Source: Eledone cirrhosa (lineage: Eukaryota). Taken from it: a DNA stretch of 64,000 bases. How positions within the stretch are numbered: the stretch's first letter is position 1; every line of letters starts with the position of its first letter. Both the position numbers and the translations under genes were made by a program. Location of the stretch: the NCBI GenBank assembly GCA_964016885.1, contig OZ024752.1, positions 47,120,001 to 47,184,000 on the forward strand. The letters run 5' to 3'. Under the pieces are notes generated by a model that did not search any database, was not told the DNA's origin, and worked only from the letters and a program-made list of their open reading frames with translations. Positions 3,990-63,821 of this stretch are shown piece by piece.

Positions 3990-4028
<39 letters not shown>

Positions 4029-5754: not shown

Positions 5755-5785
<31 letters not shown>

Positions 5786-5853: not shown

Positions 5854-5886
<33 letters not shown>

Positions 5887-5898
5887 CAAACAACAAAC

Positions 5899-10250: not shown

Positions 10251-10363
10251 CATATATATATACATATATATATATACATATATATATACATATATATATA
10301 CATATATATATACATATATATATACATATATATATACATATATATATATACATATATATATAT

Positions 10364-10766
10364 ATAATATATAAGATCAAAAGATGGTTAAAAGAGTTCC
10401 ATGTATTTTATTATGCGCATTTCAAAAACAAATATCATCATGCAATAATATTTGTGTTTTCATCAGATAAAACAGGAAGACATGATATGAAGGTTAAAAA
10501 AACACTTGTGAATAGTGCAGTTTTAAATCAACATATCATAAAACTGCACTATTCACAAGTGTTTTTTAACCTTCATATCATGTCTTCCTATTTTATTATT
10601 GCATGATGATATTTGTTTTTGAAATGCGCATAATAAAATACATGGAACTCTTTTAACCATCTTTTGATCTTATATATTATTTATACTCCAGTCCTACAAA
10701 CTGTAGAGTGCTTCTTATCCGATATCTGCATTGCTTTATTGTACTACAATAAAACTCACCTCCTAC
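10364..10766. mobile_element. Penelope-like pLTR-derived fold-back element in (TA)n
   Basis: Inverted arms 10364-10525 and 10539-10680 with a 13-nt loop; contains a hammerhead; flanked by (TA)n. Confidence 0.65.
10402..10476 (-). ncRNA. minimal type-I hammerhead ribozyme motif (Penelope pLTR-like)
   Basis: tgttttat CTGATGA aaacacaaatat...atatttgttttt GAAA tgcgca TA| ataaaata; palindromic stem III ATGCGCAT. Confidence 0.75.
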
Positions 10767-38119: not shown

Positions 38120-41100
38120 TATTTGAGAGAGTGTGTGAACATGTAAGAAGGTAAGAGAGATGCAGCCCCTAGTCTATCTGAGAGGTCAGTAGCTCTGATC
38201 AAGTACTGACCTGGTCTGTGATGACCCCATCAAGCTCTTACTATCAGAGAGAGAAAGAGAGACAGTACTCTTAAACCAGAATAAAAAAAAAAGAGTAGAA
38301 AAGAGAAACTTACCTCACCAGTCTGAATATTAACAGGCTTTAAATCACCGGAATATGTACCCAGAAGAAGAAAATTACTGGAAGACTGGAAGAAAATAAA
38401 AAGTTGAATATATTTCAATTATGTTCCTAAATTATTCACTGAAGTTGAATAAACTTAAGATATTTAGTTTTTTAAAAAAGAAAAGTCATTAAAGTAGGTC
38501 CACCACTGATTTTCTGGTAACTGACAGTCTACCACCCTTTTTTAACCCCTTCGATACTAAACTGGCTCTGATTCTACAATACAAAACTTGTTTGTTTAAA
38601 AGTATTTATATTTATCTAAAATACCTATCATAATTCTATATGGAAACTCTTGTTAAGTTAATCTATTTAAATTCTTAAATATTTTCAAAATGACAGAGCT
38701 AAAGAAAAGTAACTACATCAGGCACACTGCAAATATTTTGGCCACTGATGGTCAAGCACATCTTTTGATCAGGACAGAAATATGGGCAGAGGCTTCTTTT
38801 GTTATTGCTTCAGTAATAAAGTCAGGTGTTTGAGACTCATTTATTTTGAAATATGGCATAAAAAAAGTACATTATTCTATGTACTATATATGCACTTTGA
38901 TGAGTTGTAGTGCACCTGAGCACAGTACAAAATAAAGAAAGCATTATTATTATTATTATTATTAAAAGGTATTAAAACCAAAGAACTTACAATAAATGTA
39001 CAAGAAGAATAACCATCTTCGTCTGGATCACGGAATGTGCGAATAGGTTTGAATCTGAAGATAACCAAAAAAAAATGTAAAATTCACTGTTGAGTTTAAA
39101 GAAAGCGGGAACAATTCTCAGTTACGTTAATTGGAAGGAAATGTAAGCTTGGATTGTTAACACAGTAAATGGAATATAGAAAATACAGGGTATTATACAG
39201 GTAAATTAAACACTAAATGATTCAGATTTTGATTTAAAATACAGGTAAAATTCCGTTATAATGAATAACAAATTTTTCAGAATAAAATTGTTTTCAATCC
39301 CCAAGGTGATAACAAACAAACACTCAATTTGTTTCAGTTGATCTCGTTATAAAGAATTTTTTGTTACAATTTTTTTAATAGCCCATGGATTTTGTTATAA
39401 CGGAATTTCACTGTATATATCAATTCCCATCTCACCCTTGCAAGCAGGGAAAAGCGGATATATGATGATGATGATGATATATATATATATATATATAATA
39501 TATATATGCCTGTGCAATATTTTGTTTTGGGGAATTCAATACCAATAATTAATGATATACATTGTACAAGAATATATATATACATGAATAAATACATTAC
39601 TTCAAGTAGTATTAAAGGTGTATCTAAGTTTCAAGTGAAAATTGTACCATACCTGCTGTAAACATATTTTTTGTGACATTTAAATCCATCAATACCACCA
39701 AATTTAGGAGAAATCTGTAAAAATAAACCAAAAAACAAACATTACGGTGTATATTCTTGACATAATTCTCGGAGATTCAGCACGAAACAGTGTATAACAA
39801 GCCTGGCCTTTAAATTACAGGTGCACACCATCTTGTATGACAGAGTACCTCGTTCTTTTATATGGTGATCTTTAAGGAAATTAGGTGTAAAAGAGTAGCT
39901 TGTGAGAGCAGTCCAAGCCATGTCAGTAAAGTGAGAGTAGGGAGTGAGTTCATCAGGTAGGAGTTCATCAGGGTTTGGTTCTTAGCCCACTGTTATTCAC
40001 CATAATTCTCCAGGCCATAACAGAAGAGTTTAAGACTGGAAATTCTCTGTGCAGATGGTCCTTATAGCTGAATCCATAAAAGAACTAGAGAATAAGTTCC
40101 GACTATGGAAACAATTTGGAATCAAAAAGTCTGAATAGCCAAAACTAAAGTGCTAGTAAGTAGGAAAGAAAATAGGACCCTGATTCCTTTAGAGAAGTGG
40201 CCCTGCTCAATGTGTAGAAAAGGAGTAGGGATAAACTGTATAAGATGTACACTATGTAAATCTTGGGTACACAAGAGATGTAGTGGGATAATAGACTAAC
40301 AGGAAGGGAAGACTTTGTATGTAAAAGTTGCAAGTAAGTTTGAATATTCAATACATACCATAGCTCTATTAACTCTCGCTGTTATACAAGTAGGAGCAAA
40401 TCTACTTCCTCGAGGATCTGGACACTTATGTGGACTGAAAATGAAAAAACAATCATTTCGGTTGTTTTAAATAATTCAAATAAGACGATAGAAAACAAAA
40501 TGCACGGTGTGATTATTTTGTTGCAATTAATCATTATAAAGATATGGTATTTTGCAGATACAGCAATTGAGAGGTATTTAATAATATATCTAACTTTATT
40601 ATGTGCCCCCAGGGAATCCTTTGATTAAAATGAAATATACTTATCCAAGTACCCTGGGCAATATAGTTTCAGAATATATATGGTTATGGGGGGGGTCTAT
40701 CTCCAAAACCATAGAAGGAATTTGTGAACAAACAGACAGGAACTACAACTTTATATATATAGATATCTGGTGTTTCAAGCATAACTGAACCTTTAACATT
40801 TGGTACTATATACAGGGTATATCATAAGGGCTATATTTTTTTTAACAAATGACCATCGTCTACAAATTTATATATAGATAAACATCTCCGTATTATAGAA
40901 ACAGGGATAGTTTCAGTTGGTGTGCTAGGTACTAGGTGTGTTTTATTGTGGCACCAGTACTACAACTTTACAGAGTGTACTAGGTGTGTTTTATTGTGGC
41001 ACCAGTACTACAACTTTACAGAGTGTATTAGGTGTGTTTTATTGTGGCACCAGTACTACAACTTTACAGAGTGTATTAGGTGTGTTTTATTGTGGCACCA

Positions 41101-44100
41101 GTACTACAACTTTACAGAGTGTACTAGGTGTGTTTTATTGTGGCACCAGTACTACAACTTTACTTTACAGAGTGTACTAGGTGTGTTTTATTGTGGCACC
41201 CAGTACTACAACTTTACAGAGTGTACTAGGTGTGTTTTATTGTGGCACCAGTACTACAACTTTACAGAGTGTATTAGGTGTGTTTTATTGTGGCACCAGT
41301 ACTACAACTTTACAGAGTGTACTAGGTGTGTTTTATTGTGGCACCCAGTACTACAACTTTACTTTACAGAGTGTACTAGGTGTGTTTTATTGTGGCACCA
41401 GTACTACAACTTTACTTTACAGAGTGTACTAGGTGTGTTTTATTGTGGCACCAGTACTACAACTTTACAGAGTGTACTAGGTGTGTTTTATTGTGGCACC
41501 CAGTACTACAACTTTACAGAGTGTACTAGGTGTGTTTTATTGTGGCACCAGTACTACAACTTTACAGAGTGTACTAGGTGTGTTTTATTGTGGCACCCAG
41601 TACTACAACTTTACAGAGTGTATTAGGTGTGTTTTATTGTGGCACCAGTACTACAACTTTACAGAGTGTACTAGGTGTGTTTTATTGTGGCACCAGTACT
41701 ACAACTTTACAAAAAAAAAAAAAAAAATGAATATTTGTCATATTTGTCAAAAAAACTTACGTGAAGAGTGACATTGGAGGACATGTGACCATGGGGTTCT
41801 TACAGAGGGCATGTTGTTTCCTGAGATATTCTGTAACAATGCCATCCAATGTTACTTCATTATCAGAATGGTGTTTGTGGATCATATTTTTCATGATAGT
41901 CATGTCTTCTAGTCGTTCTTTTGTAAACTGTGACCTTGCACTGACTGCCTGGTTAGCCTAAATAGGAACAAGGAGGGGAATTATTTGCAACGGCAAGAGA
42001 CAGGAAAAGATGGAGAGTGTTGGTTTCTATGTCCTAGACACCCGACCAACGGATGTGAGGATGGGATGAGGCTGCGGTTAGGGCTTAAATCTGAAAAGAA
42101 ATTATTCCATGGATGGAAAAAAAAAAAATCTAAACGTTATCATTTAATGTCTACTTTTTTCATGCTCGCATGGGTTGTCGCAGACCGTGTTAGTACTTAA
42201 TCAGAGCTATTGACCTCTCAGACAGGCCAGCAGCCAGCATCTCATTAATCAGAGCTATTGACCTCTCAGACAGGCCAGCAGCCAGCATCTCATTAATCAG
42301 AGCTATTGACCTCTCAGACAGGCCAGCAGCCAGCATCTCATTAATCAGAGCTATTGACCTCTCAGACAGGTCAGCAGCCAGCATCTCATTAATCAGAGCT
42401 ATTGACCTCTCAGACAGGCCAGCAGCCAGCATCTCACATATGTTCCAGCACTTAATGGAGTGCATTGTGTGCATTGTACCGAGACACTGGTACTAGGGAG
42501 GTTGCCATGTCCATGACATAACTGAAGGGTTCTCTCAACTCTTTGTTTCGCAAATTTTCTACAACTGGATGGGTGCCCTTCTTAATGTCAAACCCCTTAC
42601 AGAATGTACTGGGTCCCCCAAACACTGGAGAGGCTGGCATATCTGTGATGTCACCTGAAAGTCCTCTCAACCCTTTTGGCATGATTTCTACTGTTGGATG
42701 TGCTAGCCGACCCCAATCACTTTACAGAGTGTACCAGGTGTGTTTTATTGCAGCACCAGTTCTACAACTTTACAGAGTGTACCAGGTGTGTTTTATTGCA
42801 GCACCAGTTCTACAACTTTACAGAGTGTACCAGGTGTGTTTTATTGCAGCACCAGTACTACAACTTTACAGAGTGCACTAACTTCGGCAAAATTTGAACT
42901 CGGAGTACACAATTGAAATATGAAGGAAGACAAAATATAAAAATAAAAGAGTTTTACTTTGATTGTGGGAGCTGAAGCAATAACCGGAGACGCAGCTGAG
43001 TGACGATTGAGGGAGAACTTTACAGGACCTAAAGTGCCATTAGAGTTTAAGATACTGGCACTAGGGGAATGTGATAATAAAGATGGTGTTTGGTTAGAAT
43101 TGTGACTGGTTGGTAATGGACTTAGTTGACGTGACTGTAAATAGAAGGAAATAGAAATAAACATGTCAGGTTTTTATGATATATGCATTTTAAAACCCTT
43201 TTCACACCAACCCAGAAAATGTTTACCTGCAATTAGAGAAACTAACCCAGTAGATGTTTACCTGTAATTACACATACTAACCCAGTAGATGTTTACCTGT
43301 AATTACACATACTAACCCAGTAAATGTTTACCTGTAATTACACATACTAACCCAGTAAATGTTTACCTGTAATTACACAAACTAACCCAGTAGATGTTTA
43401 CCTGTAATTACACATACTAACCCAGTAAATGTTTACCTGTAATTACACAAACTAACCCAGTAGATGTTTACCTGTAATTACACATACTAACCCAGTAAAT
43501 GTTTACCTGTAATTACACAAACTAACCCAGTAGATGTTTACCTGTAATTACACATACTAACCCAGTAAATGTTTACCTGTAATTACACATACTAACCCAG
43601 TAAATGTTTCCCTGTAATTACACATAGTAACCCAGTAGATGTTTACCTGTAATTACACAAACTAACCCAGTAAATGTTTACCTGTAATTAGAGAAACTAA
43701 CCCAGTAGATGTTTACCTGTAATTACACATACTAACCCAGTAGATGTTTACCTGTAATTACACAAACTAACCCAGTAGATGTTTACCTGTAATTACACAA
43801 ACTAACCCAGATGTTCACCAGCTAACCTTGGTGGGATTTGAACTTAGAACGTAAAGGGCTGTAACTCTATGCAGCAAAGCATTGTGTCCAATGTTCTGCC
43901 GATTCTGCCAATCCACCGCCCTAATAAAAATGTTTCTGCTTTTAGCACAAGGCCAGAAATTACCCCAGTGCATTACTGGTACTTTATTTTATAATAATAA
44001 TAATTGTTTCTACTTTTGGCACAAGGCCAGCGATTACCCAGTACATTACTGGTACTTTATTTTATCGACCCCGTAAGGATGAAAGGCAAAGTTAACCTCA

Positions 44101-50200: not shown

Positions 50201-53200
50201 AAAAATATTCATAAAATGTATGTACAGTATCTGCCTACCAAATTCCACTCACATGGCATTAATCAGTTCAAGGCTATAGTAGAAGACACTTGCAAAAGGT
50301 GCTGCATTGTAGGAGACTCCGAAACAGCATGGCTTGTAAAGCAAACCTCTTAAGCACAAGGAAAAGGAAATATTTGGGGATTTAGAATAAAAAGTATTGA
50401 GATATTTGAAATAGTAATTTTTCAATGTTACTAACTTGATAGCAGAGGCTGTAAACTCCAAGCCTACTGGGAGGGGTTCAAGCATAGCCAGTTGGCATTG
50501 AGGCATAATGGTACAGACTGCTAAGACATCCATTGCACTACATAAAGTTTCTGACCTACAAAAAAACAACATTGCTTTAGCATGAAAAACAATACAACAT
50601 ACAAAAGCACTTTCAAATTTCAAGATTTAATAAAAATTATTTTACAGTAATAGATTATTTCTTAATCCTTTTGATATTAAACCACCTGAAACCACCTCTC
50701 GGTTTGTTTTATAATGTTTATATTTAACTAAAAACTAGCCATCATAAGTTCATTTAAGAAACTTTATTAAGTTATGTTTCAAAGTCCTTATAAATTCTTG
50801 AGTAATTTTAAAATAATTTGAAACTCATAAGAAATATGCTAACAAAAAGATAAACTGGTACTTAACAGGATCTAGTCTAGAATAGGTACACATCCCTGTG
50901 TCCCACAAGAAGTGACTAAAAAGGTATCCAGCTGTAAAATATTGCCTCAAAAAGTTCCATCCAACCCATGCTAGTATGGAAAAGTTGAAAACTCTACAGA
51001 GTTTTCTACAGCTTCATGCCCTGACAACCACCAACCACCTTACACTTTTCTACAGCTTGATGTCCTTACAACCACCAACCATCTTACACTTTTCTACAGC
51101 TTGATGTCCTTACAACCACCAACCATCTTATACTTTTCTACAGCTTGATGTCCTTACAACCACCAACCACCCTTATAATCACCAACCACCTTACACTTTT
51201 CTACAGCTTGATGTCCTTACAACCACCAACCACCCTTACACTTTTCTACAGCTTGATGTCCTTACAACCACCAACCATCTTATACTTTTTTACAGCTTGA
51301 TGTCCTTACAACCACCAACCACCCTTATATTCACCAACCACCTTACACTTTTCTACAGCTTGATGTCCTTACAACCACCAACCACCCTTACACTTTTCTA
51401 CAGCTTGATGTCCTTACAACCACCAACCACCCTTACACTTTTCTACAGCTTGATGTCCTTACAACCACCAACCACCTTACACTTTTCTACAGCTTGATGT
51501 CCTTACAACCACCAACCACCCTTACACTTTTCTACAGCTTGATGTCCTTACAACCACCAACCATCTTACACTTTTCTACAGCTTGATGTCCTTACAACCA
51601 CCAACCACCTTACACTTTTCTACAGCTTGATGTCCTTACAACCACCAACCACCCTTACACTTTTCTACAGCTTGATGTCCTTACAACCACCAACCATCTT
51701 ACACTTTTCTACAGCTTGATGTCCTTACAACCACCAACCACCCTTTCACTTTTCTACAGCTTGATGTCCTTACAACCACCAACCACTTCACAGGCATGAC
51801 TGTCACACAGTCACATTTCTGTCTTATCAAATAGGCTTAGTAAAAAGACAAAAGAGAAAAGAAGTGGCAGAGGAGGAATAAAACTTACTTGCTGGGATAA
51901 TTGTTCCAGTTTTGTGCAATAGCTAACAGCTGAATCACTAAGCTTATGCCACCAAGCTGCTTGAATTGAGCAACAGGACGCCAGACCATACGGACAGGCA
52001 TTAGATCAAGTAACATTTCAATGTTTTCTTGCACCACTTCAAATGTCAACTTTAATGCCTGAAACAGAAATTTAAAACTAAAGAAATTAAGACACAATTC
52101 TAAAATAATTGTAATTAATACAATGGCAAAAAACACATAAAAATAGAAACAAATAATTACTACGATGAAGATGAACACTTTTGTGACAATATTTCTAAAC
52201 ATTTCATATTTGCTTTCTACCCCATCTTGCTCATATGTGGCATGGTCTCTATGGCTGGATCATCGTCATTTCATTTTAAGTCCGCTTTCTCCCTGCTTGC
52301 AAGGGTGGGACGGGAACTGATGCTGGCTTGATTTCTACAGCTGGATGCCCTTCCTAACACCAACCTCATTTACAGTGAGTGCTGGGTGCTTTTTTGCCGT
52401 GGCACCTCCACGACCACTTTGCAGTGGAATGATAGGGACCCCAGTCCCTATCATCTCATTTCTACAGCTGAGTCAACTGGAGCAATGTGAAATAAAGTGT
52501 CTTGCTCAAGGAAACAACACATCACCCGGTCTGAGAATTGAACTCACAACCTTTCAATTGCAAGGCCAATGCTCTAACCACTAAGCCATGTGCCTCCATG
52601 GATGCCCTTCCTAACACCAAGCACCTTACAGTGTCTACTGGATCATTTTTTTCTTGGCACCACAACTTTATAGTGTACTGGGTGCATTTTTTTCTTGGCA
52701 CCACCACAGCTTTACAGAGTGTACTGGGTGCATTTTTTTCTTGGCACCACCACAGCTTTACAGAGTGTACTGGATGCATTTTTTCTCGGCACCACCACTA
52801 CAACTTTACAGAGTGTACTGGGTACATTTTTTGAGGCACCCACACAACCACTTTACAGAATCCAGCAACCCTAGAGAAGTCGTCACATGCTAGGCCAGAC
52901 TGACATGTCCTCTCAACCCCTACACTGTCTTCATTTGATCATTTGCTCTCCAATCTGTTGCACCCAGTTTCTCACCATGTTCACTTTTAGTGCCACAGTG
53001 ATTCAGGTTTTGTGTATTATGGTATATCACCAATCTGCTCGGTCCCGTATCAAATTGACAAAGCATGTGTTGTTTCCTTGAGCAAGACACTTTATTTCAC
53101 ATTGCTTCAGTTTACTCAGCTGTAGAAATGAGATGATAGGGACTGGGGTCCATATCATTCCACTGCAAAGTGGTTGTGGTGGTGCCACAGCAAAAAAGCA

Positions 53201-53707: not shown

Positions 53708-56700
53708 TAATGTAAATGCTAAAGGGTTAACACCCATTTTTCCTGATAGTAAAGGTCGGTCAGATTGTCACAGAAGATACAGTCTATCAGGCTTCTACAG
53801 TTTCTGCCTGCCAAATTTCACTCATAAGGAATTGGTCAATCTAAGGTTATAGTAAAAGACACCCAAGGTGCTGCATAGTGGAACTGGATCTGAAACCATA
53901 CAGCTGGGAACTGAACTCCTTAACCACACAACCATGCCTGAACTAATGATAATAGTTCTAAAAATAACATACCTTGTTTGCAGGCATTTCAGTAACAGGA
54001 GAGCCATTCTCGTTACGCAGGTGAGATCGCCTTATTTCATCTGCATGTAGAATCAAATGAGCTTCCATATATTTCTTAAAAGCAATACAAACATAACGAG
54101 CTATCTGTCGCATTGTATAGAGCTTGTTCTCCATCGGTTGTTCAACTGATGCATCAAAATATAAAATTGGAAGTGTGCTCACCTTTCAGAAAAAAATAGA
54201 AAGTAGGAATAAAGAAATTATACATGGCAAACATTTATAGAAAAAAATAAGCTGAGTGTTTACTCTTCTTCTTTGTCCACTGGTTTTTTTTACACTTTTG
54301 TTACCATATTTCTAATGGAAGACAATGGCCAGTGGCACCCTAGGGAGCCTAGGATTCTCAAATATTGAGCCCCGCAAGGTGGAGTGGCTGTCACTGGCCA
54401 TTGTCCGCGGGAATGTTTTTGCGGTCTTGTCTACGGGACGCAGCCCTTCTGCCCCCATGCCCAAAACCCAATCACCCCTCCCCTCTCTTCTGCGGCACTA
54501 GAGTTCTTGCCATCTCCTCACCTTCCTGTCTTTTTTTCGTTTTTTTCTCTTCCTTTTTATTATTATTATTATGGTGGATTGGCAGTATCGGTAGAGGGTC
54601 GGACGCCATGCTTTCCAGCATAGTTACGTCCCTTTGCGGTCTGAGTTCAAATCTCGCTGAGGTTAACTTTGCCTTTCATCCTTACGGGGTCGATAAAATA
54701 AAGTACCAGTAATGCACTGGGTAATTGCTGGCCTTGTGCCTAAAGTAGAAACAATTATTGTAAGTACCAGTAATACACTGGGTATTTGCTGGCCTTGTGC
54801 CTATATAAGAAACCATTATTATTGTAAGTAATACCCTAAATGAAATAATAGTTTCACTTTCTGAAAATAATCCTGAATTTTAAAGGATTTAGTGGCGCAA
54901 CTAATTTTCTCATTTATCAAAGTGTGTGGAACATAAGTTAAAGATACTGACGCGCTAATACCTCGGCCAATTCCCTGCTTTAAGTTACATCCATAAACAC
55001 AACGGTTAACTCACCACATTAATTAAACGCCGGAGCCCATCTTTCTGATCAAATAAGTCGAGAATGATCCGGAAAGCAAACGCATGATCCAAAAATATAG
55101 CAGCATGGCAACGACTAGACTCGTGTGAACACTCAAGTAACCACAACACATAGCTGAAACAGAAAGATCAAAAGGATAAAGAAATTCAAAATATGCCAAC
55201 AGCATTATTTCAACATCATTTTATGTTAAGGTGGCGAATTGGTAGCGTCATTAGAACATCGAATAGAATGCTTTGCGGCATTCGTTCTGGCTTATGATCA
55301 TAAGACTAACACCCGAACCACTAGGCCACACAGATTAGACAGGGATTACATAGCCTATTCCACTCAGACTAATTATCCAATATCTGCTTGTATGGTAGGA
55401 ACACGTCTAAAGCTCAAATCAGATTGTTTCTGTTCCCTTCTTGCACTTTTTTTTCCATTTAATTTACCTCCATATTTCTTATAAACTGTCAAAACTAGAA
55501 TGCAAGCAAACAAGATATACTCCCTGGATATTTAGGAGGACAAAGTCTCCTGACCAGTCAAGGAATTAAATCCATAAAATTGTGAGCCCAACACCTTTAC
55601 AACTTGGCCATGAGCCTTTACTACCTTGTATAGTGGAACAACATAATATATGTACCTTGTATAGTGGAACATCACACCACAACATCAGAATATAATATGT
55701 ACAGTAGAACATCACAATATAGCTTACAAAGAGCAGCACAACGAAAGAAAACTTATGATGATGATGATGTCAGTCTAGGTAATAATCTAAAGAAATGACC
55801 TAGCTTGGTTAAAGAAATCTCATCTATTTAAAGTTACCTTGGACTCTAAACACTGTCATTAATTGTTATGCCTATAAAACCAATCACAAAATAATGCCAT
55901 AGATTATTTGCTATACACACTGCAATAAATACAATCAAATATGAAGATTCTATTTGTCTCTGTTGATGTCAAACACTTACTTTACAAGTTCCGACAGAAC
56001 ATGTTCAGGGAGTAAGCAGACCTGAAAATAGATGAAAACATAATTAAAAACAATCTAGTTTAACCCTTTAGCATTTACATTACTCTATATATACTATTGT
56101 TTTCACGGTAAAGGCTTTACCTCACATAATGTTGAAGCTACAAGATGTTGATGTTATTTATTTTGAGAACAATACCATAACATCAATATGAGCAGCTGGT
56201 TATAGATAGTTTGAACAGAAAGAGGTGAGAGAATTCTGGCTGGATACAGTTGGTATAAAAGCTAAAGGGTTAAAAAAGAAGTTAAGCTGTTAAGTCTGTC
56301 CCAAGAAACAGAGTACAAGACTCCCTCTATCACAGGATTAACACTCAACTACTCCTGATGATACTAATTTTCAGCTGAGTATACTGAAGCAATGTGAAAT
56401 GGAATGATTTGATTAACACAACACATCACCCAGTCTATATATACTGTATAAATAAAATGTGTGCCCCTATTTAACATTCTTCATCCATCTACAACAATAA
56501 GTGAGAAATGTTGGGGATATGAGTTTTATTAAGTAAACTAAGTTTCAGTATAAATATATTGAGAAATAGAACATATGTAAACAAATAGCTCACACTTATG
56601 TAGGTTTAGCTGATCCCCTACATAGTTTTCTTGGATGTTTTAATAATAGGGGCTCCAGTGCCACCATGAAAAGCATAATGAAATGTTGATTGTGAATCCA

Positions 56701-58990
56701 ACACCCTAACCACTAGGTCACGTATCTTAACCAATGCTGTAAAATAAAACTATGATGTTAGATCAGACCTAAGAATGTTAGACTCACAGATGAATGTCTG
56801 GGAAAAGGCTGTATTGCCTATATATAAAATTTATTCCAGTACACAAAAATAGACAAGATCATAACTACATAACAATTGTTACGATAAAAAAAAGAAGTTG
56901 TAGTACCCTTTCCATTGTCTCTTCAAAGTAGGAAAGATAGTATATACAAAGAGAAACTCCAGTAGCAGCAATGGAAGGTCGGTGAACTTCTAAAAGACGC
57001 TGAACACCATCTGAATTTAAAAATTTGGTTGCAAACTTTTTATGGCAGATCAAAGTTGCAAGGTACTGAAAGAGAAGAAAACAAAGTAAATTGAATTCAA
57101 TTGAATTGAAATCTCTCTCTCTCTCTCTCTCTCTTACACACACAATATATATATAATTATCATCAGTTTTCCCTGTAAGCATGAGTTAAACATATACAAA
57201 ATCATGGGCAAAGGTGGTGAGAGCTGACCTCAGATCGTTGAAGCTAACGGAGGAGATGACGAAGGTCCGTGACAAGTGGAGAGATGCTGTGCTGTCCTTG
57301 CAAGCAGGGAAAAGCGGACGTATGATGATGATGACATATATAAGACCCAAAACAGATCATATGAGTTAACTGTCATAACATGACAACCCGTCTAACCTAT
57401 GCAAGCACGAAAACAGACATTAATTAAATGATGATGACATATAATCATTTCAGATATAGAGTAATTTTTTTCAGATATAAAAGTAATTTTTGCAGCTTTG
57501 TTTATTTATATTTCTAAACTTCTCAGATTGGAGACACACTTTAAAAAAATTAATTTTCATGACTCATTAAGTTACATTAGTGACAGAAAACTAAATAAAT
57601 TGATGAATAATCAATTAAATATATCATGTCATCTCAAATATACTTCATATACAAATATTGAGAAAAAAATTGATCAGATTTCAATCAGTAATAATAATAA
57701 TAAAATAACTTACTTTGAGAGCCTCAAATGCAAGACGAATATCCTTGTTCTCTCTCAAGTTGATGTAATGCATAATGAGGTCTATTGCTCTGTATTGTAT
57801 CGCAAGTCCTAGCAACTGCAAAACAGAAATGTATAGAGTTAAATATATATTAACAACAAAACAGAGAGGCTTTTCATACATTTAACATTGCATCATAAAC
57901 ATTAAATTTTTCAAAACAACTTTTAAATGACTTTTCTTTTCAGAAAATATATCTAATGTAAATGAGATTGATCTGGAGTATCGAGACTAATAATATGGAG
58001 TTTCATTACTAGTGATTAGTCACTATATTGATTTATCATAATCAATCATAAAAGAATGAGATGTTTAAGCATGAAACTTTGTCTTTTGTTTTCATTGTTC
58101 AATATATATATATATATATATCACAGATTTGATGTGATTTTTATTGTGTTAACACTGGTCTGAGGATCAGGCAGTCTTGGAGTCTGGTCTGGGGGTGCCA
58201 ACCCACATCACGAGCCAGCTGCTTAAGAAACATTTGTAACCAGGATTGAGCAATAAATCTCCTATGTAACACCTCCACTTTCTTCTTCTATATATATATA
58301 TATATCCTGATGTCTTCCAAAAGTAACGGTCGCATTTTGAAAGGGTACGTCAATGTTTATTTATAAAACTGGTATATATTGTATTTTGTCTGATGAAGGC
58401 ACACCATAATTTAACTTGGTATCCTTGAAATATGTATAATGAAATAAATATGGTTTTATAAATATAGTTTCCATTTGTTAATATCGTATATCTACTCCAA
58501 ATACTTGTCGAGTGCTTTATATCAGTTATAAAAATATTTACTTGTTGTATCCCAACAATTTAAATAGAACTTTTGCATATATATATATATATATATAAAA
58601 TATTAAAAAAATAATGAATAAAACAATGAAACAGTTCCTTATATTAAACAAAAAAAGTTCATTATTTCTGAAGACGGCATATATATGTGTTTGGTATGTA
58701 TATTTAATTTTGTATAATTTTGTACATAGATCTGTTGAATATGCATGCCAATTCTAACACATATATATATCCTAGAAACGATCGTTAAATAATGAACTTT
58801 TTTTGTTTAATATAAGGAACTGTTTCATTGTTTTATTCATTATTTTTTTAATATTTTATCTTGACTCTGTATTCCGTTTATCTTTCACCGAAAGTGATTT
58901 TTCATTGCATCTCTTCTTTCCATGATATCCGGATTACATTGAGTTCTTCATACGGATTGGACACTACCGTAAACTCTTGGTAGATTTATC

Positions 58991-59055
<65 letters not shown>

Positions 59056-62000
59056 CTCTGTAGCACGTTTAGAATACACAACGGAATCTGATGTGATGAA
59101 AGCCTACTATAAAAACAAGAACTCCCATCCCAGATCCCGGAATTATTACTTCTGGACTACATGGAGTTCTAACAATGTTATTGGCCCTACCACAGATATA
59201 TATATATATATATAAGCAAGTATTGCACCAAGGAAAATATTAACGTCGGCGTGAAGGAGATTAAGAATCAATTTGCTTTAACATATGTTTCTTTGTCTAT
59301 TATAATTGTCTACATATGTTGACTACAATATATATTGTTCAATCATATGCAATACTTAATTATTTATTACACTTCATCAGCAAGCCTATAATAGTGGAAA
59401 TGCCTATTCACTATGCAGTAGAATTCAGCAACGGAATTTTCGTTTATACTTGAATATAAGCCAAGGATTATGTGACCCCACAAAAAAAAATCAATGGTAA
59501 AAAGAAGTCACACAATGAAAGTGAACAGAAAACAACTTGGTTGTGAAGTGAACAACTAACCACACAGCCATATCTGCAACTATAACATATATACATATGA
59601 ACAATAAAATAATATGAAGTCAAGAAAAGTGGTTTAGAAATTTATTTACCTCTTGGTATTCTCCCATTGGTATGAGATAGTGTAAAATAAGTCTTTGTTT
59701 CATGGAAGCACTCATAGGATCCATACAATAAGAACCAATAACATAGGACATCATTTCAGACCAGCTACTGTTACTAGATTCTGAAGAGAAATAACAAAAA
59801 AAAAAAAAAAATCAACATTTTTATGTAAGAACCTTAACCCTTTAGCATTTACATTACTCTATATATACTATTGTACTTTCACAGTAAAAGTTTACCTTCC
59901 ATAGTTATCTCAAATAATAATGCTTCTATGAGATTTTGATATTTTTTATTCTAAGAACAATACCTTAATATCAGTTACAGCCGTGTTAAACAAAGTGGTG
60001 AGAGAATTCTGGCCAGATATGGCCAGTTTAAATGCTACAGTGTTAACCATTTGGCCATGCTTGCATCCACACCATTAGCTGCAGTTTAACAAAATGGCAC
60101 ATTAAAATCGAAGACTGCCCATAGTTAAAAAACAAACAAACTATTACTTCCAGCCAAAACATAAGCAAACAATTCTTAGCTAAGGTTTGTATGATGTTCC
60201 TACTTCTAAACATATTTCCTTTATTTAATCCCATAGCTGCCAACAAATAGCCAAATTATCTTTAAAACAAAATATTTACCTTCTTTTTGGGGGCAAAACT
60301 CTCGTCGGGTAGTAACAGCATTAGATGAATCGTAACTAAAATATGTCGGTGATAAAGATAATTTCAAAGATGGTTTTTTAATGCCATCGTTAGCTTCAGA
60401 AGAATTTTCACATATTCGCAGTTTTTTTTCTTGTATCTCTGATTTGGAAATGGTAAATGTATTTTTTCTTTTATTATCAGAAGGTGTTACAGTAGTAGAT
60501 GTAGAAGAATTAGATGGTGTAGTTTTAGGGGTACAAGGAATAGATGTAAGATTGGGCACATTAGAAGTAGTGTCTTCATCATTTGTTTTAGCAAACATAT
60601 GGAAGTGAGATTTTTCCTTGGTGCTGTTATCACTAGCTTTCTGTTTTTCAGTGGTATCTACAAGAGGTTCTTTGGATGATTCAGATCTTAGTTTGTGCAA
60701 TTTATTTAACAGCTGGGCAACCTGAAATAAAATAAAATAAATATATAAGTAATAAACTAATACAACCAATCTAATTTGTTTAGCAAATAACTTGATCTAA
60801 GACTGTGTTGAAACTAGGAAGAATTAGATGTACTGCCATACTTTAAAACAGGATAAGTTGGAGAATCTTGTTTTCTTTGTATGTTCTATTTTTGGCATAG
60901 TGTTTCTATGGTTGGATGCCCTTCCTAATACCATTTTAGAAAATGCATTGGATGTTTTTAATAGTGGCATCAATATTACTGAGATGACAGGGTGCTTTTT
61001 ATTTTAGCACCAACACTACTAATTTACAGAGTCTACTAGGTTTTCTTTAATGTGGCACCAGCACTAGTAAGGTTGTTATGTCATTTGAAAAATAATTCTG
61101 AAGGAATAAAATCAACCAGAAGGTAACATTCTTAGATTATTCCAGAATTACATTATTAGCTAAAGAATTTAAACCAAAGGCTAATTTCTTATGATGAAAT
61201 TGAAAATAAAATTATTTAATAAAATATTCAATTATTCAAAACAGTATTTCCTAAATTAAATTATAAACACTTGTATTAAAGCTATGTAGTTTATATGAAA
61301 TATTGGGTCAGGATTGTTTTATGAAACCCAATACAATGCAAGTTAGAAATACAAGAATGAAAACTAAAAGTAAGACAAACAAAACAACACTTTACACTTT
61401 TACCTTATATTTCATAATATTTTGGTGTGATGAGCTTACCATCATCATACTTCATTCCCTTCTTTTGAAAAAGGGGGTCATAAGCCTGAAATAATAGGTA
61501 AAAAATGTGAAATATTGTTTTGTTTGTCTTACTTTACTCTAGTTTTCCTTCTTGTCTTGTACTGTATTAGCTTTCCCAAAATTAATCCCAATTGTATTGA
61601 AAAAAAAAAAAAAAAAATACCAAGACAGCGTTTTCATCCTTAAAATTTGAAGCAACGTCTTGTAATTCCATTGCTAGTGCTAACAATCCTACAGCATAGT
61701 AGCATAAAGGATCTTCATCTGTTGAAGCCCACTGGAAGAGGCGAGTCACAAGGCCTTCCTAGATAGACAGAAAAGAAAATTCAATAAAAAATAATTCTGT
61801 AAGAGATCTATGAGTTTCTTACAAATATACGATTTATTATGAAGTAGTAATGGGAAATTATAATTTTTTCTATTATATGAACTATTCTATATAAATGTAG
61901 TAATACTTTTGATTGGTGTAAACTAAGTGAGAACCTAAGAGTCGCTTCACTTCTCCCTTTCTTCACTACACAACTCCCCAAGCTCATTTCATCCTCTACA

Positions 62001-63821
62001 AGTGAGAAGGTGAATCTGGTGTAGCATGGCATGTCACCAGTCAATTCAATCCTGCATCATCTTTATGAGGTTTGATTACATGAGGCCAGCTTCTACCACA
62101 TCATCCCAAGCTTTCCAAGATCTTCCTTTTTCTATCTTCGAGTGCCCTGCACTTCTTTATGCAGCTGTCAACCTCCATATGCATGATGTCCTTTCCTGCA
62201 CACTGCACCTGACTCCTCTTATACCCAGTTTCTCTCTCAGTTAATTGATATTTCGTATTCATGTATACTTCTATTACACATCTATCAGAGAATGCATGCC
62301 CCATTTCTTTCCAATCTTCATAGGATCTCTGCACACAAAGCCCAAGTCACAATTCCATGCAGCATTGCCTTTCACACACAAGCATCATAGAATCTGCCTT
62401 TCACATTGAGGGGAAAAAAACAAAACAAATCATTCTCACTCTAGCTACTACTGTATTTTCAGAACACCTACCTCCACTACTAATTTGGTCACCCAGATAA
62501 TAAAACCTGCCATCTATACCTAGAGAGCCCTTTGAGCATTTGATAGAACTTGTTTCATGTGAGTTCATGTTGCTTATTGCTCCTTGTACATCTGAAACAT
62601 ACAAAGTCTATGTTCTTTGCTAGCCTTGGTACATAGACTTGAATTTCTACCTATTTCCTCCTCATCATCACCGTTTTACATCCATTTTCCACACTAGCAT
62701 GGGTTAGACAGGTTCATATATCCATTAATCCTAGTTATATGGTATACCAATCCTGGACTTCGAAAATCAATACGTTCAACTCTATTGCCATCATGAATCA
62801 ATAACAGAGTAAAGAATTCATAATTATGCTTTTTATATCTAAAGGATTAAATACATAATATAGAAATTCAAATGTATTGCTGTAAAATTATTTCTATGTG
62901 TTTAAACTTTCACATTCTATAAGGTTTCAAACAAAAATAATAACCAAATGAGGCAAGCATGCTCCGTTGGATGTGCAGTGTAAATGTGCGTGAACGACCC
63001 AGCATAAATGTGTTCAGAGAGAAACTGTGTCTGAGAGGGATAGAATGTAGTGTACAGGAGAGGAGACTGAGGTGGTATGGACATGTGATGCGCATGGAGG
63101 ATGACCGATGGGTGAAGAAGTGCCAGGAAATGCCAGTTGAAGGAAGACGTGGTAGAGGTAGACCATGAAAAACATGGGCGGAGGTGGTGAGAACAGACCT
63201 CAGATCATTGAAGCTCACGGTGGAGATGACGAGGGACCGTGACGAGTGGAGAGATGCTGTGCTGAATAAGACCCGTCCCACCCTTGCAAGCAGGGAAAAG
63301 CGGACGTAAAATGATGATGATGATGATGATGAAATAAAAACTCTAAAATGAATTGAAAAAAATTGTAATTTTACCGTTCCTTGGAAGACATCAGAAGTCT
63401 CCAATCCATTGATGATATCCAACAATAAACGACAAGCTGCTATATGTATATCCTTTTTTTCCCAACCACCCTCCATTATGTAGGTGCCAATCTGAAAAAT
63501 ATAGGTAAAATCATTATAGAAACAGTGATAATCCCTGAAGATGTCACAGAAAGGTGTGATGAAAGAACATTGAGAAATTATATATATTTATATTTTTAAC
63601 TGTTAGTCAATCAATGATAAAGATTGATTGCCAAATAAACTATTTATGGAAATATAAAAAAAATATACTGAAGTGAAAACCAAACGGTGAATGTGTTTTA
63701 CTATTTTTGGCAATATTCATTAATATATAAAAATATATATTACTTACTTTACTCATAAAAGCCTCATTAATAAAAAGAGCTTTCATTAAGTGACCTAATG
63801 TACAATTAGGATTGGCAATAC
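28207..63821 (-). CDS. DCAF1: DDB1- and CUL4-associated factor 1 (VprBP), 5'-partial multi-exon gene (35 coding exons in window, ~1427 codons)
   Basis: All exons are bounded by GT/AG with consistent phases. The joined translation matches remembered human DCAF1 throughout: [43 protein letters not shown], LisH region, [22 protein letters not shown]40 [20 protein letters not shown], acidic C-tail. Stop TGA at 28209-28207. Confidence 0.96.
28988..29105 (-). CDS. DCAF1: DCAF1 exon, acidic tail ([11 protein letters not shown]...GSSDIE)
   Basis: ttcag|...|gttcgt; 118 nt. Confidence 0.85.
30158..30244 (-). CDS. DCAF1: DCAF1 exon ([29 protein letters not shown])
   Basis: tatag|...|gtaagt; CRLYE motif. 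Confidence 0.92.
30324..30615. repeat. 41-bp tandem repeat x~7
   Basis: atcatcatttaacatctatttttattgcaattgcttagtgt. Confidence 0.92.
31294..31642 (-). mobile_element. tRNA-derived CORE-type SINE
   Basis: Near-identical to other copies. Confidence 0.88.
31727..31803 (-). CDS. DCAF1: DCAF1 exon ([25 protein letters not shown])
   Basis: tgcag|...|gtaagg; 77 nt. Confidence 0.91.
31853..32066. mobile_element. piggyBac-like MITE
   Basis: Intact TIRs and TTAA TSD. Confidence 0.87.
32350..32760 (-). mobile_element. CR1 LINE 3' end fragments (two 3'UTR tails)
   Basis: Reverse complement of the 11420-11655-type sequence. Further tails at 12045-12165, 15918-15962, 16432-16590 and 38872-38930. Confidence 0.85.
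33271..33650 (-). mobile_element. tRNA-derived CORE-type SINE with variant tail
   Basis: Head and CORE shared with other copies. Confidence 0.85.
33710..33808 (-). CDS. DCAF1: DCAF1 exon ([10 protein letters not shown]...[14 protein letters not shown])
   Basis: ttcag|...|gtaagt; 99 nt. Confidence 0.91.
33960..34053 (-). CDS. DCAF1: DCAF1 exon ([31 protein letters not shown])
   Basis: ttcag|...|gtaagt; 94 nt. Confidence 0.94.
34054..35012 (-). other. U12-type (minor spliceosome) GT-AG intron of DCAF1
   Basis: Donor GTATCCTTT; branch site TTCCTTGAC at 34076-34068, ~15 nt before CAG, with no long polypyrimidine tract. Confidence 0.9.
35013..35246 (-). CDS. DCAF1: DCAF1 exon (IYDINTG...[20 protein letters not shown]...IINSEV), WD40
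   Basis: ctcag|...|gtatccttt (U12-type donor); 234 nt. Confidence 0.95.
36187..36271 (-). CDS. DCAF1: DCAF1 exon ([28 protein letters not shown])
   Basis: tgcag|...|gtaagt; 85 nt. Confidence 0.92.
36942..37024 (-). CDS. DCAF1: DCAF1 exon ([27 protein letters not shown])
   Basis: aatag|...|gtaagt; 83 nt. Confidence 0.92.
37804..37860 (-). CDS. DCAF1: DCAF1 exon ([19 protein letters not shown])
   Basis: tacag|...|gtaagt; 57 nt. Confidence 0.91.
38314..38385 (-). CDS. DCAF1: DCAF1 exon ([24 protein letters not shown]), WD40
   Basis: tccag|...|gtaagt; 72 nt. Confidence 0.92.
38991..39054 (-). CDS. DCAF1: DCAF1 exon ([21 protein letters not shown])
   Basis: ttcag|...|gtaagt; 64 nt. Confidence 0.92.
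39240..39415. mobile_element. pogo/Tigger-like MITE
   Basis: tacaggtaaaattccgttataa...ttataacggaatttcactgta, with TA flanks. Confidence 0.65.
39653..39714 (-). CDS. DCAF1: DCAF1 exon ([20 protein letters not shown])
   Basis: tacag|...|gtatgg; 62 nt. Confidence 0.91.
39860..40330 (+). mobile_element. decayed RTE reverse transcriptase fragment
   Basis: [46 protein letters not shown]. Confidence 0.75.
40359..40434 (-). CDS. DCAF1: DCAF1 exon ([25 protein letters not shown])
   Basis: ttcag|...|gtatgt; 76 nt. Confidence 0.91.
40927..41710. repeat. 48-bp tandem repeat x~16, related to a SINE internal unit
   Basis: gtactaggtgtgttttattgtggcaccagtactacaactttacagagt; short related arrays at 42720-42880 and 52630-52860. 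Confidence 0.93.
41761..41957 (-). CDS. DCAF1: DCAF1 exon (ANQAVS...[30 protein letters not shown])
   Basis: tttag|...|gtaagt; 197 nt. Confidence 0.93.
42197..42436. repeat. 48-bp tandem repeat x5
   Basis: ttaatcagagctattgacctctcagacaggccagcagccagcatctca. Confidence 0.93.
42958..43134 (-). CDS. DCAF1: DCAF1 exon (SRQLSPLP...SAPTIK), low-complexity linker
   Basis: tacag|...|gtaaaa; 177 nt, phase 0-0. Confidence 0.85.
43218..43812. repeat. 35-bp tandem repeat x~17
   Basis: actaacccagtagatgtttacctgtaattacacat. Confidence 0.94.
44240..44358 (-). CDS. DCAF1: DCAF1 exon ([15 protein letters not shown]...MATPKA)
   Basis: ttcag|...|gtaaga; 119 nt. Confidence 0.9.
45605..45686 (-). CDS. DCAF1: DCAF1 exon ([27 protein letters not shown]), LisH start
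   Basis: tttag|...|gttagt; 82 nt. Confidence 0.92.
46508..46868 (+). mobile_element. tRNA-derived CORE-type SINE
   Basis: Full-length copy. Confidence 0.88.
46963..47102 (-). CDS. DCAF1: DCAF1 exon ([11 protein letters not shown]...SLQDIRK)
   Basis: tacag|...|gtaatt; 140 nt. Confidence 0.94.
47603..47684 (-). CDS. DCAF1: DCAF1 exon ([27 protein letters not shown])
   Basis: cttag|...|gtgagt; 82 nt. Confidence 0.93.
47758..47947. mobile_element. piggyBac-like MITE (opposite orientation)
   Basis: Intact TIRs and TTAA TSD. Confidence 0.87.
48320..48391 (-). CDS. DCAF1: DCAF1 exon ([24 protein letters not shown])
   Basis: tgtag|...|gtaaga; 72 nt. Confidence 0.93.
49061..49180 (-). CDS. DCAF1: DCAF1 exon (LGGGVGRF...[13 protein letters not shown])
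   Basis: tacag|...|gtgagt; 120 nt. Confidence 0.92.
49390..49690. repeat. 49-bp tandem repeat x~6, SINE-internal unit
   Basis: cagcacacactgtaaatgtggttgtgtaggtgtcatgacaaaaagcacc. Confidence 0.9.
50015..50117 (-). CDS. DCAF1: DCAF1 exon (IMIGLAEG...[18 protein letters not shown])
   Basis: ttcag|...|gtaggt; 103 nt. Confidence 0.92.
50436..50555 (-). CDS. DCAF1: DCAF1 exon ([15 protein letters not shown]...TASAI)
   Basis: tgtag|...|gttagt; 120 nt. Confidence 0.88.
51002..51790. repeat. 44-45-bp tandem repeat x~17
   Basis: ttttctacagcttgatgtccttacaaccaccaaccaccttacac. Confidence 0.93.
51889..52058 (-). CDS. DCAF1: DCAF1 exon (ALKLTFE...AQNWNNYPS)
   Basis: ttcag|...|gtaagt; 170 nt. Confidence 0.92.
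52259..52597 (-). mobile_element. tRNA-derived CORE-type SINE
   Basis: Full-length copy; an inverted 5'-truncated partner lies at 53066-53312 (+). Confidence 0.88.
53496..53730. mobile_element. piggyBac-like MITE
   Basis: TIRs and TTAA TSD. Confidence 0.85.
53973..54182 (-). CDS. DCAF1: DCAF1 exon (VSTLPIL...KKYMEAHL...MPANK)
   Basis: gaaag|...|gtatgt; 210 nt. Confidence 0.9.
54572..54760 (+). mobile_element. tRNA-derived SINE with Meta-like central domain (representative copy)
   Basis: ggtggattggcagtatcggtagag..gttcaaatc head; gaggttaactttgcctttcatccttacggggtcgataaaataaagtaccag; (att)n tail. Other copies at ~4775-4990, 12755-12950, 20050-20700 (several), 24022-24200, 28545-28660, 37395-37610, 43820-44190, 44702-44897, 45365-45550. 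Confidence 0.8.
55015..55153 (-). CDS. DCAF1: DCAF1 exon ([10 protein letters not shown]...DGLRRLINV)
   Basis: ttcag|...|gtgagt; 139 nt. Confidence 0.93.
55981..56021 (-). CDS. DCAF1: DCAF1 small exon ([13 protein letters not shown])
   Basis: ttcag|...|gtaagt; 41 nt. Confidence 0.9.
56060..56273. mobile_element. piggyBac-like MITE
   Basis: TIRs and TTAA TSD. Further copies or fragments at 8218-8520, 16227-16430, 28438-28778, 29160-29367, 34197-34394, 35345-35540, 35723-36103, 44489-44703, 59834-60046. Confidence 0.85.
56907..57065 (-). CDS. DCAF1: DCAF1 exon ([12 protein letters not shown]...YFEETMER)
   Basis: ttcag|...|gtacta; 159 nt. Confidence 0.93.
57714..57815 (-). CDS. DCAF1: DCAF1 exon (LLGLAIQY...LAFEALK)
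   Basis: tgcag|...|gtaagt; 102 nt. Confidence 0.93.
58382..58446 (+). ncRNA. minimal type-I hammerhead ribozyme motif
   Basis: tattttgt CTGATGA aggcacacca...tggtatcctt GAAA tatgta TA| atgaaata. Confidence 0.72.
58595..58859 (+). ncRNA. hammerhead ribozyme motif closed by a perfect 73-bp stem I
   Basis: Stem I 58595-58667/58787-58859; CTGAAGA at 58668; long stem II; GAAA at 58775; palindromic stem III ACGATCGT; GUU triplet. Confidence 0.72.
59275..59385 (-). ncRNA. hammerhead-like motif, partly decayed
   Basis: gcttg CTGATGA...long imperfect stem II...GAAA catatg TT| aaagc; palindromic ACATATGT. Confidence 0.55.
59650..59780 (-). CDS. DCAF1: DCAF1 exon ([10 protein letters not shown]...PMGEYQE)
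   Basis: ttcag|...|gtaaat; 131 nt. Confidence 0.93.
60280..60721 (-). CDS. DCAF1: DCAF1 exon ([11 protein letters not shown]...FCPQKE), Ser/Thr-rich divergent region
   Basis: ttcag|...|gtaaat; 442 nt open, phase fits the next exon. Confidence 0.88.
61621..61758 (-). CDS. DCAF1: DCAF1 exon ([11 protein letters not shown]...NFKDENAVL)
   Basis: tctag|...|gtattt; 138 nt. Confidence 0.92.
62030..62620 (-). mobile_element. decayed RTE LINE fragment
   Basis: [22 protein letters not shown]; KKCRALEDR. Confidence 0.7.
62945..63331 (+). mobile_element. RTE LINE 3' fragment
   Basis: [33 protein letters not shown]; (atg)n tail. A shorter copy lies at 57195-57335. Confidence 0.9.
63375..63491 (-). CDS. 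DCAF1: DCAF1 exon (IGTYIMEGG...[22 protein letters not shown])
   Basis: ttcag|...|gtaaaa; 117 nt, phase 0-0. Confidence 0.93.
63748..63821 (-). CDS. DCAF1: DCAF1 exon ([24 protein letters not shown])
   Basis: ctcag|...|gtaagt; similar to human ADPECMLGHLLRILFKNDDFMN. Confidence 0.9.

Follow-up and report, generated by a model that had tools for sequence, protein, structure and literature searches.

Probable Ends of Hydra-Type Penelope-Like Elements, with Hammerhead Motifs, Stacked in TA Runs of a DCAF1 Intron in Eledone cirrhosa

An intron of DCAF1 in Eledone cirrhosa houses a cluster of short modules set between TA runs, several of them with the layout of a hammerhead ribozyme. Are these modules families in their own right or pieces of larger elements, and how did they come to lie together? 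We addressed this for a window of 64 kb (the whole stretch of DNA analyzed). Sequence comparison makes it very probable that the cluster consists of five end-pieces stacked in TA runs, four of them 3′ ends of Penelope-like elements (PLEs) with Hydra motifs and the fifth likely another.

The gene was identified as E. cirrhosa DCAF1 (minus strand) because another of its exons matches human DCAF1 (E 3.5e-9), and the intron limits were taken from the exon edges (GT-AG). The location inside a DCAF1 intron, claimed in an earlier note on this DNA, is thus borne out. Every module is a dispersed repeat, found again genome-wide, and the parts are as follows.

57816..59649, minus strand: DCAF1 intron housing the cluster, 1,834 bp, of which about 1,485 bp is element pieces and TA runs
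57963..58110, plus strand: left part of F5, the oldest element, with a decayed hammerhead core; 70-81% identity to the upstream part in 6/6 F5 loci compared
58122..58287, plus strand: F6 end-piece; GIY-YIG end upstream in loci L139, L213, and L221
58304..58578, plus strand: F1 pseudo-LTR (pLTR) and tail, 98-100% identity to other copies; pLTR end at about 58494
58595..58667, minus strand: inverted 5′ arm of the F2 insertion, 73 nt, reverse complement of 58787-58859 (100% complementary)
58661..58995, plus strand: F2 pLTR and 136-nt tail; pLTR end at 58859; the tail precedes an intact ORF in locus L130
58994..59053, no strand: (TA)30, read from the sequence, the longest of five TA runs between modules
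Near 58103-58121, 58289-58305, 58577-58596, and 59196-59214, no strand: the other TA runs between modules, read from the sequence
59052..59197, plus strand: tail of F5 and likely right half of the element begun at 57963-58110; 79-92% identity to other copies
59212..59447, minus strand: F3 end-piece; end of a GIY-YIG ORF upstream in loci L046, L057, and L075

We infer that both F5 pieces belong to one copy; left part and tail are linked by a short TA-rich run in three other loci (L106, L114, and L116). A 39-mer of the F2 tail has 3,837 exact matches genome-wide, tail copies of F1 and F2 having been sought by exact pattern matching and not by similarity search; the exact F3 pattern occurs in only 5 places because the F3 family is old. 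No Penelope ORF is visible in the 64-kb window, as had been noted before (tblastn with the intact F2-family ORF, no match), and Pfam on 7 translated pieces returned a weak GIY-YIG match (E 0.011, under the curated cutoff) and one spurious low-complexity match. Contig runs (n = 4) over 58100-58990 made the repeats visible, with starts, ends, and strand not resolvable.

The hammerhead motifs were located with a motif descriptor (F6, F1, and F2) and from the sequence (F3).

58155-58243, plus strand: F6; stem I 58155-58159 with 58239-58243, CUGAGGA at 58160, 60-nt stem-loop II, GAAA at 58227, stem III ACAUUUGU, predicted cut after 58238
58390, plus strand: F1 core; stem III AUAUGUAU, predicted cut after 58438
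58668, plus strand: F2 core CUGAAGA; stem III ACGAUCGU, predicted cut after 58786
59380-59374, minus strand: F3 core CUGAUGA; stem III ACAUAUGU at 59288-59281, predicted cut after 59280

The earlier note had described the F1, F2, and F3 layouts, and these are real, with stem III sequences and predicted cut sites as it gave them; it had overlooked the fourth, in F6, which falls just left of the range it covered, and the decayed fifth element. For its second motif (58595-58859) the core and predicted cut hold and the 73-bp stem I does not, the native stem being 10 bp. That 73-bp helix was rejected as an RNA feature: its arms were duplicated at insertion, so their joint change is not covariation, and the native upstream sequence differs. 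The inverted arm was joined via stem I complementarity. The window copies carry further changes: in F6, G>A at 58225 weakens stem II; stem-loop II of F2 is 100 nt, against 116 in the native copy at L092, and F2 has no canonical 10.1-11.1 pair. A descriptor with no palindrome requirement matched the 64-kb window 4 times (58160, 58390, and 58668 on the plus strand, 10466 on the minus strand) against 0.225 per shuffled window (40 shuffles). Both hammerhead scans of the window missed the minus-strand F3 motif because this copy has G where its family has T, a G.A mismatch at the first stem I pair (2.1-1.1). The model search suggested at the outset did not recover the motifs; an Rfam scan of 56000-62000 gave no hammerhead at E≤1 and 7 chance matches, mostly on TA repeats.

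The motifs have the type I core (CUGANGA, GAAA, and UH) and three helices backed by covariation. Across 15 sequences hand-picked to span related families, 14/20 pairs change on both sides and 96.6% of cells pair, a level reached in 0/500 shuffles; slid controls were 34-53% paired. The stem covariation whose absence would have spoken against the first reading is thus present between related families, and not within near-identical copies of one family. The lowest-energy predicted folds differ from the active fold, which costs 2-12 kcal/mol. With stem III an 8-nt, loopless, self-complementary helix, the hammerheads are predicted to cut only as dimers, and the palindromes first noticed here fit such cleavage. 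Dimeric variants of PLE hammerheads were reportedly described in a 2017 paper. A published set of type I hammerheads, with loads of 2,000-9,000, likewise combines the type I layout and a palindromic stem III with predicted dimer activity; most of its copies are solo and come from truncated elements, pairs on opposite strands lie 100-700 bp apart, and each genome has many families. Unlike in that set, G10.1-C11.1 is not conserved here (A-U, G-U, U-A, or mismatch), and the load here is far higher, at about 170,000 such cores above control, or roughly one per 17 kb genome-wide. In the accessible part of PMC7229834, 120,000 retrozyme copies are given for the axolotl. A literature search, with most subscription papers outside its reach, found no report of this hammerhead load or of the fixed 5′ end described below.

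What the modules belong to is seen in their long copies. Those of F1, F2, F3, and F6 carry the endonuclease end of an ORF upstream of the hammerhead, and the tails of F1 and F2 are the start of the 5′ UTR; in long F1 copies an ORF lies both upstream and downstream, and the window piece begins at the fixed 5′ site of its family (58304). The F2 ORF in L130 is intact (809 amino acids; RWR at 36, DKT at 114, YRDD, CxCx5C, YIG, CxxC, and CxH). The same motif set, DKT and RWR included, occurs in F1, whereas recovered F3 sequence holds CxCx5C, YVG, CxxC, and CxH, and F6 holds YVG, CxxC, and CxH. A single ORF with RT and C-terminal GIY-YIG and no N-terminal endonuclease is found whole in F2 (L130) and piecewise in F1 and F3; from F6 only its endonuclease end was recovered. 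DKT (for DKG) and an RWK-type motif, RWR being a conservative variant of RWK, were found in F1 and F2, the families whose N termini were recovered; neither was seen in F3 or F6, for which the recovered sequence lacks the N terminus. The linker reads CxCx5C (for Cx2-5CxxC) in F1 (CNCRNKSNC), F2 (CNCRNKANC), and F3 (CNCRNPSNC); a pattern check found no Cx2-5CxxC in the F2 ORF, and CxC is apparently missing in the one F6 copy read (L221). CxxC and CxH surround the conserved endonuclease E and N in all four (F1, CDLC/CRH; F2, CRLC/CNH; F3, CELC/CKH; F6, CRLC/CMH). For F5, no ORF was found in 3 10-kb loci (0/3) or in 11 short loci (0/11).

The Penelope pLTR origin first proposed is therefore upheld for F1, F2, F3, and F6, whose modules do flank GIY-YIG/RT ORFs, and the proposal of several nonautonomous families gives way to ends of ORF-bearing elements. 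In weaker form it survives, in that many short copies resemble, by their sequence, full copies of the initial 200-350 nt of the element RNA. Assignment to the Hydra clade is made here on protein motifs, and the hammerhead in the pLTR and insertion in (TA)n agree with it. Accessible parts of the Hydra clade description (Craig et al. 2021, PMC8557442) report hammerheads and (TA)n targets, including in Hydra-1_Obim of Octopus bimaculoides, and its section 11 lists features shared with the motif set of F1, F2, F3, and F6. Alike are RT with C-terminal GIY-YIG, DKT, RW[KR], the CxCx5C linker, CxxC/CxH around E and N, a hammerhead near the 3′ end, (TA)n targets, an inverted 5′ arm, and a one-sided tail. 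In File S2 of that paper, as far as accessible, the base at the cut position is usually U or A and no hammerhead matches the families here; its Hydra entries have a stem III of 9-10 nt with a 1- to 3-nt loop (here an 8-nt loopless palindrome) and stem-loop II of about 10-25 nt (here 30-116). The same source gives tails of 30-40 nt (here 82-145) and "<3 kb" for most Hydra elements (here about 4 kb for F1 and 6 kb for F2), and the 3′ UTRs here, about 1.5 kb in F1 and 3.1-3.5 kb in F2, also differ from that clade.

Could the modules instead be independent nonautonomous families, similar to retrozymes or SINEs, spread as hammerhead-cleaved or circular RNAs with a borrowed Penelope RT? Many short copies do have fixed ends, animal retrozymes derive from PLE pLTRs according to the available part of a preprint (bioRxiv 10.64898/2026.07.22.740005), and transcripts of solo pLTRs could extend into the flanking TA and be recopied. 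Against this, the same sequences run on into ORFs in copies 94-99% identical to the short ones, 0/30 end at the cut, and head-to-head junctions vary from copy to copy, so these are not copies of one master. Nor is there a tandem unit in the cluster: the tandem retrozyme-like arrays once envisaged would need head-to-tail repeats of a whole hammerhead unit, and none occurs in the cluster or in the F1 and F2 loci examined, the single F1 tandem seen (C11, unit of about 103 bp) lacking both GAAA and a cut site. Non-LTR retrozymes, as far as PMC7229834 and the same preprint are accessible, also carry a type I hammerhead, in a short unit that is AT-rich and akin to a PLE pLTR, but form head-to-tail arrays without an ORF, whereas the pieces here are solo or head to head and continue into ORFs. 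We regard independent families as very unlikely.

As ends of Hydra-type PLEs, the pieces would owe their stacking to the target. TA repeats directly follow 25/30 F2 copies, in keeping with the repeated insertion at TA repeats that was first suggested, and in 19/30 an inverted arm begins where the pLTR ends. The boundary with (TA)n coincides with the tail end for direct arms and with the pLTR end for inverted ones. We infer that the GIY-YIG endonuclease cuts both strands of TA runs and that RT begins at two fixed internal RNA sites, by analogy with a Poseidon element in vitro. For that element, Poseidon PAc, the accessible text (Frangieh et al. 2024, PMC11167929) has two internal RT starts defining the tail and both strands cut and extended. 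It shares an AT-rich target and uncleaved RNA as the dominant template; it belongs to another clade, and its tail lies in the ORF, whereas the tail here lies in the 5′ UTR. That text was found to mention neither a fixed 5′ end of genomic copies nor an extra G in them. Each insertion would leave TA on either side and thereby offer new targets. The first to arrive was probably F5; its internal TA run would then have taken in F6, F1, and F2, three modules that probably still lie there, and its terminal run would have taken in F3.

Hydra elements with hammerheads and (TA)n targets are already known; the extra point here is the fixed 5′ end, often with an extra G. Many short copies stop at one fixed point, 135-153 nt before the cut. 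For F2 this is an A 7 nt before CUGA: the stops of 13/30 direct arms fall between −143 and −138, no direct arm stops at the cut, and copies starting at the hammerhead cut were therefore rejected (0/30), while 3/30 junctions fall within the palindrome of stem III, 6-11 nt before the cut. In F1 the hot spot is less sharp (4/30 direct arms at −135 to −137, 11/30 inverted arms at −127 to −136). Head-to-head F2 junctions genome-wide number 922 with a 4- to 16-nt gap versus 269 with 17-46 nt. A nonnative G before −142 occurs at 311 places versus 33 one base further in; with CAG contexts removed, the extra G (210) is no commoner than native C at that place (201). The F1, F2, and F3 sites all read YYA(+1)TY. 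A splice acceptor was rejected, native F1, F2, and F3 having no AG before the site, and a constant start-to-cut distance holds only loosely (135, 142, and 153 nt, and by eye about 115 nt for the element at 10412-10466).

The fixed site and the frequent extra G suggest, at the level of sequence, that the template is uncleaved, capped RNA, and the fixed point is likely the start of the element RNA. RT would mostly take uncleaved RNA as its template and likely run off at the capped 5′ end of that RNA, which would lie 135-153 nt before the cut. We lean toward the fuller reading that short copies are strong-stop products, in which Hydra RT would prime a terminally redundant RNA at two fixed positions within its 5′ copy, read through the uncleaved hammerhead, run off the cap, and copy the cap as an extra G. 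For this step alone, the fixed end could instead come from an RT stall, stem I fold-back, or cutting of AT-rich DNA during resolution. The F2 site does lie within stem I, on its 5′ arm, a place easily joined by microhomology, junctions fall in stem I in the window copy and 14/19 other loci (a query-biased sample), and G is not above native C. Yet in F1 and F3 the site precedes the core by about 85 and 50 nt and is not in core-proximal stem I, all three share YYA(+1)TY, G is rare one base further in, and the commonest F2 form has both arms spanning the whole core, which stem I fold-back would not give. We hold a stall, fold-back, or cut to be possible but doubtful.

A transcription start at the fixed site would resemble the Drosophila virilis Penelope promoter, where, according to the accessible part of Schostak et al. 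(2008, PMC2377424), transcription begins at an initiator within the pLTR; unlike there, no intron or downstream promoter element was recognized by eye here, and the start here is a putative one. If strong-stop copying is right, about 1,000 head-to-head F2 junctions map the transcription start to the base, the origin of solo pLTRs is explained, and the ribozyme is bypassed during insertion, all in a genome with some 170,000 cores in which the loopless palindromic stem III would be a family-specific dimer code. The role of the hammerhead in Penelope elements and the regeneration of pLTRs are open questions in the literature, so far as it is accessible, and the fixed 5′ end is a base-exact prediction bearing on both. 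F2 combines an intact protein with a sharp TA target and is usable for an in vitro system.

As a locus the cluster matters little, being nested transposon debris in an intron, ordinary in kind; as a sample of the genome it points to Hydra-type families that are young, with one intact ORF and copies 98-100% alike, and to a very large load of hammerheads. Within DCAF1 the pieces are probably inert passengers, given that the three cores still intact run antisense to the pre-mRNA and the only sense core, in F3, is damaged. That the F3 hammerhead or the 73-bp hairpin was co-opted to act on DCAF1 pre-mRNA processing is extremely unlikely: F3 starts some 200 nt away from the 5′ splice site, and the perfect hairpin would form in the intron RNA, but this F3 copy lacks the first stem I pair and needs a partner RNA, such cores are common throughout the genome, and the copy is about 10% diverged, as are other decaying copies.

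About 1,485 bp of one 1,834-bp DCAF1 intron (57816-59649, minus strand) in this 3.0-Gb genome is a cluster of end-pieces from five families, F1, F2, F3, F5, and F6, Penelope-like in all but F5, which is probably so too. The host is probably an octopod, judging from one partial homolog named Octopus sinensis, an octopus-like SINE in the flank, and the Hydra element published for Octopus. The feature is real, and the earlier note named the right superfamily; the three hammerhead layouts described there (58382-58446 and 58595-58859, plus strand; 59275-59385, minus strand) were found in place. Families and additional matches to a hammerhead descriptor were as follows.

58122-58287, F6, 91-95% alike across the whole module
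58155-58243, fourth hammerhead motif (descriptor match), overlooked in the earlier note
58304-58578, F1, copies 98-100% alike
58595-58995, F2
59052-59197, F5 tail, 79-92% alike
59212-59447, minus strand, F3, 85-92% alike
10412-10466, minus strand, further descriptor match, far from the cluster

The descriptor, which made no demand for a palindromic stem III, gave 4 matches in the window versus 0.225 per shuffle. Its failure on the minus-strand (F3) motif is explained by a G.A mismatch in this copy at the first stem I pair, a place occupied by T in the other 19 loci shown. In the middle motif, the 73-bp stem is not native but an inverted arm made at insertion; native stem I was 10 bp in 14/14 longer copies. 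The match at 10412-10466 belongs to a further hammerhead family (stem III AUGCGCAU; core 10466, minus strand), very common among genome-wide pattern matches, in a head-to-head insertion abutting a long TA run at 10330-10700.

In three F5 loci, sequence matching 57963-58110 was followed by a short TA-rich run and then the tail (the stretch after the pseudo-LTR, pLTR). The simplest reading, with the order of insertions taken from position and divergence, makes F5 a single old insertion whose internal TA run was split by F6, F1, and F2, with F3 in the terminal run. Different families were also stacked at single TA runs at other loci (L025, L043, L159, and L173). Exact tail matches genome-wide numbered 264 for the F1 38-mer and 3,837 for the F2 39-mer (control, 0).

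The pieces are, as placed by motifs, ends of Hydra-type autonomous elements (probably so for F5) and not retrozymes; in other copies F1, F2, F3, and F6 continue from RT or endonuclease ORFs. Long F1 copies contained the whole RT and endonuclease, with frameshifts. Locus L130 (contig G000:C18) held an uninterrupted 809-aa Hydra-type F2 ORF (L130:3328-5757, minus strand) with RWR, DKT, YRDD, CxCx5C, YIG, CxxC, and CxH. It has 81 relatives in the database, 32-48% identical, and the F2 family is probably recently active. The ORF end upstream of F3 carried CNCRNPSNC, YVG, CELC, and CKH, and an endonuclease end preceded F6 in L139, L213, and L221. The linker of the F6 parent appears to be without the CxC of the CxCx5C motif (one copy read, L221). 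No ORF was found for F5 in the loci examined; it was put with these elements because of its likeness to F2, with which it shares stem III and the 3' arm in L107. PMC8557442 describes Hydra-clade protein features shared, by motif, with the ORFs found here, insertion into (TA)n and hammerheads in nearly all families of the clade, and one family in Octopus bimaculoides. In F2 and F1 the tail forms the beginning of the 5' UTR, and the F2 3' UTR (3.1-3.5 kb; L062:690-4135 and L131-L133) consists largely of degenerate TA, CA, and TG repeats; the element therefore carries its own target sequence. This kind of element is already published; the families, loopless stem III, long stem II arms, and load are new detail.

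Insertion ends of F2 were read at the first 30 of the 3,837 tail places, chosen without regard to the 5' end. Relative to the predicted cut, direct arms stopped at +205 to +209 in 30/30, with TA repeats directly abutting in 25/30, and an inverted arm began at the pLTR end (+66 or +73) in 19/30. These arm ends match findings for a Poseidon element in PMC11167929: the RT starts at two internal sites, both strands are extended, and the template is predominantly uncleaved RNA. The 5' ends were non-random: 13 stopped at -143 to -138 (a smooth truncation rate would give 0.2), 1 at -135, and 9 further in, while 7 continued upstream (L157, interrupted upstream by a SINE, was scored among these; divergent copies were read by eye). 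None of the 30 ended at the cut, and 3 fell 6-11 nt before it. Head-to-head F2 junctions genome-wide had gaps of 4-16 nt (922) or 17-46 nt (269); many in the wider class share the same end base and carry filler. The F2 copy of the window would be a direct arm ending at this fixed site, annealed via stem I to the other arm. At L157, the SINE lies at the fixed site, and a ~17-nt duplication includes the start of the hammerhead core.

F3 stopped at -154 to -147 in 7/23 distinct other loci, and the F1 hot spot was broader (direct arms at -135 to -137 in 4/30, inverted arms at -127 to -136 in 11/30, with two clusters counted more than once); the F1 copy of the window begins at its fixed site. A ~103-bp F1 fragment beginning there, without the second half of the hammerhead, occurs in five copies (four head-to-tail, one inverted) at G000:C11:45258438-45258951. 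All three fixed sites read YYA(+1)TY, resembling an initiator consensus. Penelope transcription starts within its pLTR, according to PMC2377424. A non-native G preceded the F2 site at 311 places versus 33 one base further in; with CAG contexts removed it was level with native C (210 and 201), so a cap signal is only suggestive. No report of a fixed 5' end was found in the literature searched.

Among descriptor matches in 670 kb of loci, 13/15 types of stem III plus cut base were fully or nearly self-complementary; the other two were single matches, at about chance level. Further families had self-complementary stems III ACUAAUUAGU, ACCACUGGU, ACACGUGU, ACAAUUGU, and AUGAUCAU (L057, minus strand, 69; L024, plus, 1109; L134, plus, 2386; L141, plus, 5175; and the genome-wide pattern list). 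Across 15 sequences chosen by hand to span short-stem families, both sides changed in 14/20 pairs, with compensatory changes in all three helices, and 96.6% of cells paired (slid controls, 34-53%), scores of this type being inflated by kinship. In folding predictions, no stem III alone formed a hairpin, and duplexes reached -2.2 to -10.5 kcal/mol, in agreement with the dimer model put forward in PMC4209133, which found low activity in vitro. Counting against activity, the active fold lay 2-12 kcal/mol above the predicted minimum, and F2 has no canonical 10.1-11.1 pair.

The short-stem core pattern matched 197,705 times genome-wide (reversed control, 36,699), 113,257 of them with an ATRYRYAT stem III (control, 288), and the F2-type long-stem pattern a further 12,698 times (control, 11). 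The total, with other long-stem classes uncounted, is ~170,000 cores above control, or one per 17 kb.

DCAF1 lies on the minus strand, and F5, F6, F1, and F2 are antisense to its pre-mRNA. Only F3 is sense, in a damaged copy that would also need a partner; the effect of the cluster on DCAF1 is most likely neutral. The pre-mRNA would contain a perfect 73-bp hairpin (58595-58859), a possible target of RNA editing. Other DCAF1 introns contain pieces of the C-terminal region of an unrelated, LINE-like RT (62100-62500 and 62917-63204). The window also holds minisatellite arrays at 20832-22238 (period, 61), 40929-41711 (48), 43209-43810 (35), and 51002-51786 (44), some of which look assembled from parts of a common dispersed repeat.
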